A stretch of DNA of 64,000 nucleotides from Escherichia phage moha: sequence record MN850590.1; one strand, written 5' to 3'. The notes under the pieces were generated by a model. That model did not search any database and was not told where the DNA came from. It saw only the letters and a program-made list of their open reading frames with translations. The position numbers and the translations under genes are program-made. Position 1 is the first letter of the stretch; each line of letters starts with the position of its first letter. Positions 6,553-10,631 of this stretch are shown piece after piece.

Positions 6553-7230
6553 ATGAGCACTGATGTTATTATAGATTTTGAAACATTCGGCAATACATCA
6601 AAAGCGGCTGTTATTGACCTTGCGGTTATTGCATATAATTCGGACCCTGAAGTTGTTGAAACATTTGAAGAACTTGTTCAACGAGGTAAGCGAATTAAAT
6701 TTAATTTAGCTTCTCAAAAAGGGAAGCGAGTTTTCGCTAAATCAACTATGAAATGGTGGAAAGAACAATCGGCTGAAGCGCGTAAAAACTTGGCCCCGTC
6801 TGAAGACGATGTCACTACGCTTGAAGGCATTAAAATCTTTTTAGATTATTGTCGAGCTAATAAAGTTGACCAATGGAAATCACAGATGTGGTGCCGTGGT
6901 ATGAGCTTTGACTTCCCGATCTTGGTCGATTTGATTCGTGACCTCTATCGTGATGAAGGTGTTCTTGAACCAGATATTGATACTGATAAATTAGAACCTG
7001 TTAAATTCTGGGCTCAACGTGATATTCGTACGGCAATCGAAGCTTACTCGTTGACACGAGGATTAAGTATGTGTCCATTACCGATGGGTACGCTAAAAGG
7101 ATTCGTTGCTCATGATAGTATTCATGATTGTGCTAAAGATATTTTGATGTTAAAATATGCTCAGCGTTATGCGCTTGGCCTTGAAGATGTCCCTGAGAAT
7201 CCTGACCCGTTAAGTGTAAAACAGCGATAA
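6553..7230 (+). CDS. dexA: exonuclease A (DEDD/DnaQ-like 3'-5' exonuclease)
   Basis: IIDFETFG Exo I motif; 225 aa; directly downstream of dda. Confidence 0.8.
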   Translation: MSTDVIIDFETFGNTSKAAVIDLAVIAYNSDPEVVETFEELVQRGKRIKFNLASQKGKRVFAKSTMKWWKEQSAEARKNLAPSEDDVTTLEGIKIFLDYCRANKVDQWKSQMWCRGMSFDFPILVDLIRDLYRDEGVLEPDIDTDKLEPVKFWAQRDIRTAIEAYSLTRGLSMCPLPMGTLKGFVAHDSIHDCAKDILMLKYAQRYALGLEDVPENPDPLSVKQR

Positions 7231-7235
7231 AATCA

Positions 7236-7265
7236 GTTTACAACCAAGGATGGTTGGAGTATAAT
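7236..7265 (+). promoter_or_regulatory. T4-type early promoter
   Basis: GTTTAC, 18 bp spacer with palindrome ccaaggatggttgg, TATAAT. Confidence 0.6.
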
Positions 7266-7296
7266 GAATCTATCTTAACCAAACAGGAAAAACATT

Positions 7297-7791
7297 ATGA
7301 ATATCAATACTACGGCTACTTACATCCTGAAAGACGAAAAACAAATCAACTGGTACGGTGCTTCAGTGCGAGCTTATGAAAAGTTTTGTGAAATTTTAGG
7401 TGCCACTCAAGGTAATAGTTTCACTATTGTTAACTTCATCAAACAAGCTGAAGGCCCTTGGTTATTCTTAGAAATTAAAAATTCACACGGTACAATTTCT
7501 ACTACCGCCATTCCAAGCACCGACTTTGAACTGTTGATTGAAGAAGTAGAACCTGTTAAAGACATCTGTATTGATACGGATATCGCTTGTATGTACGGTA
7601 CTCTGATTAAGCCTATTGAGCCTACTGATTTGCTGTGTAAATATGTTTCAATTCGACGCCCATTCGCTGGTCCAGTAAATGGATGGGTAACTGATCAGTG
7701 GATTGAAGACGGTGTTGAACTTCTGAACGTTGTTCATGCAGGTGATTTTAGTGTAGTTCCACGTAGTGCTGTGGTTAATATTCTAAATTAA
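7297..7791 (+). CDS. hypothetical protein, tandem paralog family member 1
   Basis: C-terminal motif WVTDQWIEDGVELLNVVHAGDFSVVP shared with the next two ORFs. Confidence 0.6.
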   Translation: MNINTTATYILKDEKQINWYGASVRAYEKFCEILGATQGNSFTIVNFIKQAEGPWLFLEIKNSHGTISTTAIPSTDFELLIEEVEPVKDICIDTDIACMYGTLIKPIEPTDLLCKYVSIRRPFAGPVNGWVTDQWIEDGVELLNVVHAGDFSVVPRSAVVNILN

Positions 7792-7793
7792 TG

Positions 7794-7823
7794 TTGTACA
7801 TCCAAGGATGGATGGAGTATAGT
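7794..7823 (+). promoter_or_regulatory. T4-type early promoter
   Basis: TTGTACA, spacer palindrome ccaaggatggatgg, TATAGT. Confidence 0.55.
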
Positions 7824-7851
7824 GAATTCAATTTAAACAAAGAGAGAAATT

Positions 7852-8316
7852 ATGATTACTATTGGTGAAATTAAGCGTGTATCGACAGCGTCTCGTTCTA
7901 AAGCTGCAGGAAAGCTGGTTGAAGTAGTAGGACTTCGTACTAATGGCATGGGCCGTATTAAAGAAGTTAAAGTTCGAATCATTCCTAGTTCTGGAAAAAC
8001 TGAAACTCAGTTCGCCTATGTAAGTCCTAAATTCTTGGAAACTCGTGTAAGTGCCCACTTTGCTTCAAGCGATATCGTTGAGCCTACTACACAGTTCAAA
8101 TGGGCCTTATGTAAAGGTGTTGAATTCCAGACTGATAAAGAATTTGACTTCATCGATGAATACGGTTATCCAAGCAAAACTGATACTATGTGTGGCTTCA
8201 TTAGCGACCAATGGGTTGAAGATGGTAAAAAGCTATACAATATTGTATTCTTAGGTGACTTCCGAGTTGTTGAAGAATCTGAAATCACTCGCTATGTGTC
8301 TCCTCGTAAAGCTTAA
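7852..8316 (+). CDS. hypothetical protein, tandem paralog family member 2
   Basis: shares N-terminal ASRSKAAGKLVEV and C-terminal FISDQWVEDG motifs with member 3. Confidence 0.6.
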   Translation: MITIGEIKRVSTASRSKAAGKLVEVVGLRTNGMGRIKEVKVRIIPSSGKTETQFAYVSPKFLETRVSAHFASSDIVEPTTQFKWALCKGVEFQTDKEFDFIDEYGYPSKTDTMCGFISDQWVEDGKKLYNIVFLGDFRVVEESEITRYVSPRKA

Positions 8317-8325
8317 GGAATTATT

Positions 8326-8745
8326 ATGAATATTGTAAATCTCTCTACAGGTGATTACGTACACGTATCGGATGCTTCTCGCTCTAAAGTTGCCGGGAAG
8401 TTGGTTGAAGTTCTTTCTGTGAGTGATCCGGTTTTTGGACGTAACGAAGTTAAAGTTCGTGACGCCGATGGTAACATTGGTTACGTCTCAAGCCAGTTCA
8501 TTGAACCAGAAGAAAAAGCGTTCAAATGGAAACTGTGCAGGTCAGTTTTAGTTGTAAAAGATCATGAATTTACTATTGCTGCCGCAACTGATGGGTCTCC
8601 ATGGACAACGAATCAAGTCGCTGGTTTTATTTCAGACCAATGGGTTGAAGATGGTGTTAAGCTTTATAACATCGTTTTCGCCGGACAGTTCATGGTAGTT
8701 CCTGAATTCCAAATCAAAGGATATAGCCAAGCATCTTTTGCATAA
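8326..8745 (+). CDS. hypothetical protein, tandem paralog family member 3
   Basis: shares both motifs with member 2. Confidence 0.6.
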   Translation: MNIVNLSTGDYVHVSDASRSKVAGKLVEVLSVSDPVFGRNEVKVRDADGNIGYVSSQFIEPEEKAFKWKLCRSVLVVKDHEFTIAAATDGSPWTTNQVAGFISDQWVEDGVKLYNIVFAGQFMVVPEFQIKGYSQASFA

Positions 8746-8749
8746 AGTA

Positions 8750-8778
8750 GTTTACTTCTCCTCTGGTTTTGATATTAT
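8750..8778 (+). promoter_or_regulatory. T4-type early promoter
   Basis: GTTTAC, 17 bp spacer, TATTAT; lies inside a 13 bp inverted repeat whose distal arm contains the RBS. Confidence 0.55.
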
Positions 8779-8804
8779 AACCATATCAACCAGAGGAGAA
8801 TAAT

Positions 8805-9329
8805 ATGTTAGTTTACCGCGTAGAACGTAGTTTTTGTACTCAACGTGAATCATTACCCGGAATTGCTATCGAAGACGGTAAAGCCGTCAGAATTTGGGAA
8901 ACCTCTTGGAATAAAGAACCTCGCTCGCCGTACGGTTGGTCGGGTACCGACAACTCTGAAGAAACATGGGAGTTCCTTGATAAACACGGAATACTCTCAG
9001 GTAACTTCTACCATCACGGCGACAACTATAATGTCCCTAATCGTCCTACAGTAAATGAAGACAAACTCCTTGAACAAAATATCTTAAGATACTATAGAAT
9101 TGAGCACACATTTGAATTGAGTGAAGATTGGGCTCAAGGGTTCTATTTTGGATTTGAAAGTGTTGACGCGGTTTATACATGGTTTGATGACCAGGTGGAT
9201 GTTGAACTCTTGAAAGCTAAAGGATACTACATCGCGGTCTATGAAGCACCTGATTTCATACTCGGAAGTTGTCAATTAATGTTCAGACGTTCATTAGCAG
9301 AACAAGTTGATTTTATTTTGCTAAAATGA
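8805..9329 (+). CDS. hypothetical protein
   Basis: 174 aa; ATG with AGGAGA RBS. Confidence 0.55.
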   Translation: MLVYRVERSFCTQRESLPGIAIEDGKAVRIWETSWNKEPRSPYGWSGTDNSEETWEFLDKHGILSGNFYHHGDNYNVPNRPTVNEDKLLEQNILRYYRIEHTFELSEDWAQGFYFGFESVDAVYTWFDDQVDVELLKAKGYYIAVYEAPDFILGSCQLMFRRSLAEQVDFILLK

Positions 9330-9386: not shown

Positions 9387-9614
9387 ATGAAACGTCAAAT
9401 CATTAAAAACGTAACTACTGATTCAAACATCGATGAGTTTGAAGATGTTCTGTTTAATCCTGATTTAGTTGTTGTACAGAAAAACTGGACTGAATTTTTA
9501 TGCTACACTGAAGTGGTTTACGTTTACGAAAAACTCGGCGATGAAATGCCTATCTATGGTATCTTCCGTGAAATCACTGAAAATGGTACAACTTATTGGA
9601 AGGAAACTTACTAA
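9387..9614 (+). CDS. hypothetical protein
   Basis: ATG behind AGGAGA RBS; ORF-track upstream extension covers the promoter. Confidence 0.45.
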
Positions 9615-10027
9615 TGGCTAATAAATTCCGCGTTAACTCACGGTACCAATTTAAAGATAAACGTGCCCAAGAAGAGTTTATTAAAGACCACACTGATAAT
9701 GGGATTTATGCACGACGTCTTGGCATGGAACCATTTAAAGTATTAGATGTTGACCATCTTGGTCGTCCTACTAAAATTGTGACATCTACCGGCATGGTTG
9801 GATACGCAACAGGCGGTGATATCCTTGATGAAAACTTTATCTGGCTCTCCACGAATGAAGCAGAATTCTTTGACGAAGTTGGAAATCCATATCAAGCGTC
9901 CGAAGAGCAAGATTCTGGTGAACTTGATGAATTGTCTGAATTTCCGGTGATGACGATTACTATCGAAAATAACGACCAGGCATGGTCTTTGTATCAAATG
10001 TTGAAAGCTCACTTTAAGGAACAATAA
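9614..10027 (+). CDS. hypothetical protein
   Basis: TAATG overlap; 137 aa. Confidence 0.5.
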
Positions 10028-10208: not shown

Positions 10209-10631
10209 ATGGCTTTTAAAGGTTTTGAAGTTGGTAAGAAATATCGTATTATTAAAGGACAGGAAGATAATTTCTTGAGAATTCTTAATACGACTGGTAA
10301 ACGTCTTAACACTACTCTGCATACAGTTTTATTATCAAGAGATTTTATTGTAGAAGAGATGATTGGTTATGGTGTTTCAATGATTGCCGCTGAAACCGAT
10401 GGACCTGGACGTACAATCATTAGTATGCAAGGTGATATTCTAATTTACGGTGCAGAATTTAAATTCTTTGAAGAAGTTCCTGAATCAGATACAGCCGTAG
10501 ATTTCAAAAAAGGCTCTATAGAATTTGTTGATGGTTCGGTGATCGTATCAGGTGATGTGGTCATTACAGTTAAAAGTGAACAAGGGCGTTTGGCTGCAAT
10601 TGATGCACTTCAGAAAATTAAATTTAAATAA
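10209..10631 (+). CDS. hypothetical protein (goF/39.x region)
   Basis: 140 aa directly upstream of gene 39. Confidence 0.5.
   Translation: MAFKGFEVGKKYRIIKGQEDNFLRILNTTGKRLNTTLHTVLLSRDFIVEEMIGYGVSMIAAETDGPGRTIISMQGDILIYGAEFKFFEEVPESDTAVDFKKGSIEFVDGSVIVSGDVVITVKSEQGRLAAIDALQKIKFK

Follow-up and report, generated by a model that had tools for sequence, protein, structure and literature searches.

Three tandem genes downstream of dexA in Escherichia phage moha: a probable motB.1-motB-motB-like cluster

Do three consecutive, diverged genes in the early region of Escherichia phage moha (MN850590.1) form a new host-interaction or counter-defence family, as was originally predicted from the sequence, or are they members of a family already described? 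We analysed a 64-kb stretch of this phage (hereafter the window) containing the three open reading frames (ORFs), which encode 164, 154 and 139 aa and are called here ORF1, ORF2 and ORF3. Very probably they are the motB.1-motB-motB-like cluster of a Mosigvirus, members of the published MotB family (PF17613) for which a MotB-type mechanism can be proposed. Judged by its sequence, the source phage is a Mosigvirus, RB69-like and of the T4 type. The cluster and the gene preceding it are as follows, with domain assignments as predicted:

6553-7230: dexA, a 225-aa ORF directly before ORF1, annotated as the DexA exonuclease in APCEc01 and RB69
7297-7791, + strand: ORF1, the motB.1 ortholog, 164 aa, with an LSm-like N-terminal domain, a disordered linker and a MotB-family C-terminal domain
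7852-8316, + strand: ORF2, motB, 154 aa, a canonical MotB whose N-terminal domain is basic and KOW-like, with a MotB-family C-terminal domain
8326-8745, + strand: ORF3, a second motB copy, 139 aa, the ortholog of RB69ORF010c 'similar to motB'

Family membership of the three ORFs

The coordinates, lengths and motifs of the original prediction were confirmed, as was its placement of the genes downstream of dexA. All three ORFs carry a common C-terminal block (GWVTDQWIEDGVELLNVVHAGDFSVV in ORF1, GFISDQWVEDGKKLYNIVFLGDFRVV in ORF2 and GFISDQWVEDGVKLYNIVFAGQFMVV in ORF3), and the N-terminal ASRSKxAGKLVEV block is present in both ORF2 (ASRSKAAGKLVEV) and ORF3 (ASRSKVAGKLVEV). Pairwise BLASTP gave E=1e-10 for ORF1 and ORF2, E=2e-32 for ORF2 and ORF3 (44% identity over 148 aa) and E=3e-11 for ORF1 and ORF3, far beyond chance and bearing out their description as tandem, diverged paralogs. 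Profiles built from the homologs of ORF3 (MotB) and of ORF1 (MotB.1) aligned to each other in hhalign over the C-terminal domain alone, with 98% probability (E=1.2e-13). Pairwise and profile E-values together rule out chance similarity, one of two outcomes that the original prediction had named as counting against it. Scanned with the family profile in all six frames, the 64 kb yielded exactly these three members.

All three ORFs exceeded the gathering cut-off (25 bits) of PF17613 (motB, modifier of transcription): ORF2 with 136.9 bits (E=7.5e-40, residues 1-149), ORF3 with 86.6 bits (E=2.2e-24) and ORF1 with 34.3 bits, the last over residues 87-159, that is, the C-terminal domain only. The PHROG family phrog_1671, 'MotB-like transcriptional regulator', matched ORF2 (E=1.6e-65) and ORF3 (E=2.1e-51). 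ORF1 matched phrog_2333 over its full length (E=2.4e-81), with secondary matches to phrog_1671 via its C-terminus. The C-terminal core DQW[VI]E[DE]G..L[LY]N[IV]V..G..V[VI] was found in all three. The SRSKxAG...EVKVR signature of MotB proper, which belongs to the KOW-like N-terminal domain, occurs in ORF2 and ORF3; ORF1 lacks it and falls in the MotB.1 subgroup, having the LSm-like N-terminal domain and the short C-terminal domain PTDLLCK...GWVTDQWIEDGVELLNVVHAG of that subfamily. ORF2 is 89% identical to RB69 MotB and 48% to T4 MotB, and ORF1 is 46% identical over its full length to T4 MotB.1, whose C-terminus (...PTDLLCKAVYIRRPFANPIGGWVTDQWIEDGVELLNVVHAGEYSVVPRSAVVAILN) is nearly the same. 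In T4, motB.1 (143 aa) lies directly upstream of motB (162 aa).

The surroundings agree with these assignments. The region has 98% DNA identity to Escherichia phage APCEc01 (Mosigvirus) with the ORF order of RB69, and at least 80% of it is covered in 147 phage records. The RB69 record names the three genes motB.1, motB and 'RB69ORF010c similar to motB', and the ORF3 homolog is annotated as MotB-like in RB69, RB3 and SA21RB. The ORF3 product itself matches a protein recorded for Escherichia phage moha at 100% identity. Gene order in the window runs dda, dexA, motB.1, motB, motB-like, motB.2, cef, goF, 39.2, placing the cluster within the early dda-dexA ... cef-goF-39.2 block; the position of motB.2 is the sole difference in synteny from T4. 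The family is narrow: among 1.84 billion representative proteins, a profile search reached only 34 clusters at E<=1e-3. Among the BFVD viral models, the named matches at E<=0.001 all came from T4-like phages and were MotB-family or KOW-domain proteins. Profile searches of PDB sequences found no solved structure of a sequence relative, returning only noise at E>0.3.

Most of this picture is already in print. Patterson-West et al. 2021 sorted MotB homologs into categories that share the C-terminal domain and differ in the N-terminal domain, with MotB proper as category 1 and the MotB.1 subfamily as category 2, counted T4 MotB.1 among them with a likely origin by duplication, and noted that RB69 has two motB genes plus motB.1 (PMC7827196). 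Published work thus covers the family and how its domains are laid out, the MotB/MotB.1 duplication and the additional copy of RB69-like phages, and the genes carry database labels. The novelty implied by the original prediction does not survive, since clear homology to a characterized T4 family was the other outcome it had named against itself. The value of the analysis lies in closing this lead, with little for discovery, and in leaving three modest, testable points for those who work on MotB: the lost basic charge of the second copy's N-terminal domain, a C-terminal domain that is probably SH3/Tudor-like and not an OB-fold, and an RB69 29-aa peptide that derives from a frameshifted motB.1.

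Predicted folds, charge and a MotB-type mechanism

The AlphaFold2 (AF2) model of the 139-aa copy, built from a 39-sequence alignment, has two beta domains and a mean predicted local distance difference test score (pLDDT) of 85.7. Its strands span residues 11-14, 26-32, 41-45 and 51-55, followed by 73-85, 92-108, 111-118, 121-126 and 130-133. The AF2 model of ORF1 (pLDDT 78.6) has an N-terminal barrel at 8-83, formed by strands 8-11, 42-49, 55-61, 67-73 and 80-83 with a helix at 26-37, then a linker (86-107, pLDDT<50) and a C-terminal domain at 116-163. Each protein is accordingly modelled as a small two-domain beta protein with a variable N-terminal barrel, a linker and a conserved C-terminal barrel of ~55-75 aa, which carries the DQW[VI]EDG...L[LY]N[IV]V...G.F.VV block. 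For the N-terminal barrel the prediction is KOW/SH3-like in both MotB copies and LSm-like in MotB.1. Compared with MotB.1, MotB has an insertion of 17-18 residues in the first hairpin of its C-terminal domain.

The MotB-type N-terminal domain and the two C-terminal domains each show a three-residue helical turn between strands 4 and 5. Such a turn at this place belongs to the SH3-like strand order; in the OB-fold it is strands 3 and 4 that flank a helix. The best fold matches were SH3/Tudor-like, and because the C-terminal domain is the sole part common to the two models, we infer this fold for it, though indirectly, as the matches came without aligned ranges. The models point to a probable Tudor/SH3-like barrel, unlike the OB-fold assigned from HHpred (PMC7827196).

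The linker of ORF1 (window 7552-7617, residues 86-107) contains a segment of ~20-21 aa, KDICIDTDIACMYGTLIKPIE, that is predicted to be disordered (pLDDT<50). T4 MotB.1 lacks it. In MotB.1-type variants of 160-250 aa, the 180-aa and 250-aa ones included, the segment lies N-terminal to an LSm-like domain that aligns with that of ORF1, at the extreme N-terminus in the shortest, and in Klebsiella and Enterobacter phage versions it is again between the N- and C-terminal domains. It may be a mobile short linear motif.

The two domains differ in charge and conservation. All canonical MotB proteins sampled (30/30) had a basic N-terminal domain, with net charges of +2 to +8, isoelectric points (pI) of 9.3-10.7 and invariant SRSK and VKVR residues; one exception in this canonical sample is a chimera, P0029, whose N-terminal domain is likewise basic (+5). 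The N-terminal domain of ORF2 has a net charge of +8 (pI 10.7) and that of ORF3 a net charge of -2 (pI 5.2), with seven other 139-aa orthologs between -1 and +1. A strongly basic N-terminal domain like that of T4 MotB, the criterion we took from the alignment, is present in ORF2 and absent from ORF3 and these seven orthologs. The N-terminal domain of the 139-aa copy no longer has the basic charge typical of MotB, and the RIIPxxGxxE loop is missing from this copy, as is most of the linker. MotB.1 is acidic over its whole length (pI 4.6). The C-terminal domain has net charges of -5 to +3 and invariant D, W, E, G, L, N and V residues; no invariant basic residue was found in its alignment.

Much is known of the T4 proteins. 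T4 MotB, toxic when over-expressed, binds DNA irrespective of its sequence, whether modified or unmodified, co-purifies with H-NS and StpA, and doubles burst size; in a motB knock-down early and middle transcripts were unchanged and a few late genes mildly affected (Patterson-West et al. 2018, PMC6070864). It de-represses H-NS-silenced genes (PMC6070864, PMC7827196), changes H-NS footprints and up-regulates 75 host genes (PMC7827196). For the MotB.1 N-terminal domain, Kim et al. 2025 (PMC12152347) obtained an LSm-like barrel as their model and relate it to GoF and Frd.2. MotB.1 is dispensable in T4: in the same study T4 delta-motB.1 had a normal burst size and no phenotype, the effect of MotB.1 in a gene 41 5'UTR-mCherry RNA reporter was small, and MotB.1 ran as monomer and dimer when reducing agent was omitted.

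By homology to T4 MotB, ORF2 would be made early and abundantly, coat host and phage DNA without sequence specificity, shift H-NS on that DNA, de-repress H-NS-silenced genes and raise burst size modestly. According to papers that cite Son et al. 2021 (NAR 49:9229), MotB reportedly compacts the DNA of host and phage alike and relieves H-NS silencing. Charge and conservation favour a division of labour in which the basic N-terminal domain would be the DNA-binding module and the neutral-to-acidic C-terminal domain a common module for protein contact or self-association. Since MotB.1 and the 139-aa copy keep the C-terminal domain and lack the basic N-terminal domain, they would probably not coat DNA and would have another role, possibly acting on MotB's partner or modulating MotB. 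The array itself would stem from an old tandem duplication, with a promoter duplicated between motB.1 and motB, and it is held by purifying selection. T4 MotB.1 has its sole cysteine in the C-terminal domain, and this lone cysteine and the dimer seen under non-reducing conditions hint weakly at self-association.

Several points weigh against this mechanism. AlphaFold3 runs gave no confident MotB.1 homodimer (PMC12152347), which weakens the case for self-association. The association of MotB with H-NS was seen only with DNA present, and DNA-independent contact was not detected (PMC7827196). If the C-terminal domain is the OB-fold called from HHpred, it could itself bind DNA (PMC7827196). Charge is the single line of evidence from which DNA binding would be assigned to the N-terminal domain, and the function suggested for the Mosigvirus copies is transferred from T4 MotB at 48% identity.

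Beyond the MotB-type mechanism, we entertain as a tentative and rather doubtful idea that the 139-aa copy is a charge-inverted paralog which has ceased to coat DNA and works on MotB and MotB.1 through the common C-terminal barrel, whether as their partner, competitor or regulator. The common domain would then be an SH3/Tudor-like module for protein contact and not the DNA-binding OB-fold proposed from HHpred. If true, Mosigvirus and some Tequatrovirus would have a system of three components that rely on a single interaction domain.

Distribution, evolution and competing explanations

Copy number differs among the phages compared, as annotated or found in their records:

Klebsiella Marfavirus F48: one annotated MotB-like gene
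T4: MotB.1 and MotB
Dhakavirus E33: MotB and, directly upstream, a 182-aa ORF annotated as hypothetical, whose length fits the MotB.1-type variants of roughly 180 aa
Mosigvirus (window, APCEc01, RB69, WFK): MotB.1, MotB and the 139-aa copy
HY126 (genus not in its record): the Mosigvirus layout, with MotB.1, MotB and the 139-aa copy
Some Tequatrovirus (RB3, SA21RB): MotB.1, MotB and the 139-aa copy

The 139-aa copy also occurs in RB27 and teqhad, at 90.6% identity. In a tblastn search with this copy, 207 of the 773 records having any MotB match showed at least 80% identity, none fell at 60-80%, and the 566 below 60% were canonical MotB. Because of this gap, the 139-aa copy is an old, discrete paralog lineage. 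MotB.1-type sequences were found in 739 records.

Nei-Gojobori ratios of nonsynonymous to synonymous divergence (dN/dS) between orthologs were 0.09-0.29 for MotB.1, 0.15-0.51 for MotB and 0-0.22 for the 139-aa copy, compared with 0-0.07 for dexA. With dN/dS at most 0.51 in every ortholog pair, all three genes are kept by purifying selection. A separate observation concerns synonymous divergence (dS) between Mosigvirus genomes, for which window 6553-8745 was compared with L001, L002, L005 and L006. Setting aside the very close window-APCEc01 pair, motB and its second copy had dS of 0.24-0.54 and dexA, 100 bp away, 0.03-0.07. This marks a sharp mosaic boundary just downstream of dexA, and the contrast points to exchange of old alleles (mosaicism), not accelerated protein evolution.

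The original prediction also gave two of the genes their own early promoter. Two promoter-like sites, identified as consensus matches, do stand before ORF1 and ORF2, their activity being predicted:

7237-7265, + strand: early-promoter-like site before motB.1, TTTACA-17-TATAAT, 11/12 to consensus
7795-7823, + strand: early-promoter-like site before motB, TGTACA-17-TATAGT, 9/12 to consensus

The spacer of the first (CCAAGGATGGTTGGAG) is nearly identical to that of the second, and the spacer motif CCAAGGATGG[T/A]TGGAG occurs twice in the window against 0 expected. Both sites are kept in RB69; the two spacers are kept there as well, but not in T4. Since the spacers are near-identical and kept in RB69, the duplicated unit probably took in the promoter. 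The consensus scan found no promoter-like site before ORF3, which begins 9 nt past ORF2; because of this short gap and the lack of a site, ORF3 is predicted to be co-transcribed with motB.

The two motB copies of the window give no sign of recent gene conversion: their longest exact DNA match, over the DQWVEDG codons, measures 21 nt, and the codon is shared at 40 of 67 identical residues. Several metagenomic (Logan) contigs carry a single MotB gene joining a canonical N-terminal half, of RB69 or T4 type, to a C-terminal domain of the 139-aa-copy type (P0028, P0029, P0031). These genes are located as follows:

L010 1373-1894: chimeric MotB gene, with cef directly after it
L011 3001-3492: chimeric MotB gene
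L012 2199-2690: chimeric MotB gene
L013 37-528: chimeric MotB gene, with cef after an intervening 89-aa ORF

Such contigs look like a collapse of the tandem pair via recombination between the copies. They could be assembly artefacts; P0029, however, is found on 5 contigs.

RB69 offers a further observation on motB.1. Its record (AY303349; L002 1947-2443) lists a 132-aa 'motB.1' and a 29-aa 'RB69ORF012c' where the window (7297-7791) and APCEc01 have an intact 164-aa ORF, and relative to both it has two single-T insertions (alignment columns 367 and 418). Because these 1-nt insertions split the 164-aa frame, the RB69 '29-aa category 3 peptide' (PMC7827196) is the frameshifted C-terminus of MotB.1, through either a sequencing error or a real pseudogene.

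How do these results bear on other explanations of the cluster? The one originally proposed was a fast-evolving counter-defence family, in which each paralog would neutralize a different host anti-phage system and an arms race would drive divergence. The early-region location and promoter-like sites fit it, as do a copy number varying from one (Klebsiella phage F48) through two (T4 and Dhakavirus E33) to three (Mosigvirus and some Tequatrovirus), the domain-level chimeras, and an allelic diversity far above that of dexA (dS 0.24-0.85 in most pairs of motB genes vs 0.03-0.07 for dexA in comparable Mosigvirus pairs). H-NS silencing of foreign DNA can, moreover, count as defence. However, no divergence of the arms-race kind is seen: dN/dS of 0-0.51 gives no sign of gene-wide positive selection, and the 139-aa paralog is a discrete, conserved lineage with no intermediate records. 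T4 motB and motB.1 mutants have mild or no phenotypes on laboratory strains, and the characterized activity is general DNA binding, with no known link to a named defence system. The wider term host interaction remains reasonable, as T4 MotB binds DNA and alters H-NS binding, but nothing ties the family to a specific anti-phage system, and we consider the counter-defence explanation improbable.

Two further proposals seem to us still less probable. If the database labels are taken at their word, the proteins would be transcription factors whose KOW/Tudor-like barrels contact RNA polymerase or Rho, like NusG-KOW or CarD/Mfd-RID, tuning phage middle genes; we give this little credence. The other, which we hold equally unlikely, would make MotB.1, and perhaps the acidic 139-aa copy, RNA-binding Hfq-like chaperones acting post-transcriptionally. 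The predicted LSm-like N-terminal domain of MotB.1, grouped with GoF and Frd.2 (PMC12152347), and the beta-barrel plus helix in the AF2 model of ORF1 speak for such a role, but MotB.1 hardly affected the gene 41 5'UTR-mCherry reporter and is acidic overall (pI 4.6), and the 139-aa copy has an N-terminal domain that is KOW-like, not LSm-like. A MotB-family cluster with a MotB-type mechanism remains our preferred reading.

Neighbouring elements and likeness to known systems

Two sets of neighbouring elements lie downstream:

8805-9329: MotB.2 homolog, the gene after ORF3
9614-10024 and 10209-10631: goF and an RB69ORF005c-like ORF

Some records label four genes here as MotB or transcriptional regulator ('MotB x4', 'transcriptional regulator x4'). 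MotB.2 was rejected as a fourth paralog (hhalign probability 0.1%); it has no PF17613 match and the profile scan of the window does not pick it. Its site differs by group: in T4, RB3 and Dhakavirus it stands between dexA and motB.1, and in the window, APCEc01 and RB69 it comes after the motB copies (loci compared: window 8805-9329, L003 1440-1979, L004 577-1080 and L008 1373-1882). Here promoter-plus-gene cassettes appear to have been rearranged locally.

The interval that separates the second motB copy from motB.2 holds a strong hairpin (8752-8806, -23.9 kcal/mol, z=-7.8) whose 3' arm covers the motB.2 Shine-Dalgarno sequence (GAGGAG). Within it is a promoter-like site (8751-8778, TTTACT-16-TATTAT with TG). 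Read-through transcripts could mask the motB.2 ribosome-binding site, and those started at the internal promoter would be missing the 5' arm. An equivalent hairpin of other sequence is present in T4 and Dhakavirus E33 (z=-6.9 and -5.9; L003 1424-1480 and L008 1318-1374), each sequence being folded singly, as indels made the consensus-fold alignment poor. In the SA21RB record, a 'promoter' and a 'terminator' that overlap are marked here.

Further downstream, goF and the RB69ORF005c-like ORF both match phrog_622 (E=1.2e-37 and 4.5e-19), and the latter ORF weakly matches the MotB.1 PHROG over its N-terminal half (E=0.004). BLASTP of this ORF against GoF and against the MotB.1 N-terminal domain was not significant, the link running via PHROG profiles only. 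The pair makes a second set of diverged paralogs in the early block, fitting the published GoF/MotB.1/Frd.2 LSm-like family.

Among known systems, the MotB-family barrels resemble the 53BP1 tandem Tudor, Spt5 KOW6-7, NusG KOW and EF-P/eIF5A domain I in predicted fold only, which is no evidence of a common function; the PDB profile search detected no sequence relationship to Tudor, KOW or SH3-like barrels. With the phage H-NS antagonists T7 gp5.5 and T4 Arn, MotB shares the theme of relieving H-NS silencing. Those proteins bind H-NS directly, whereas MotB joins H-NS only with DNA, and there is no sequence or fold kinship.

The likeness to T4 and RB69 proteins is of another order. ORF1 is 46% identical to T4 MotB.1, with a near-identical C-terminal domain and the same position immediately upstream of motB, and differs in having the ~20-21-aa linker segment. 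ORF2 aligns end to end with T4 MotB (48%), both having a basic KOW-like N-terminal domain, a linker and the C-terminal domain, and it shares the surroundings of T4 motB (dda-dexA ... cef-goF) and an early-promoter-like site. ORF3 is built alike and differs from T4 MotB in lacking the RIIPxxGxxE loop and most of the linker, and in an N-terminal net charge of -2 vs +5 to +8. Its direct ortholog is the 139-aa 'MotB-like protein' RB69ORF010c / RB51ORF010, which likewise follows motB and from which it does not differ substantially.

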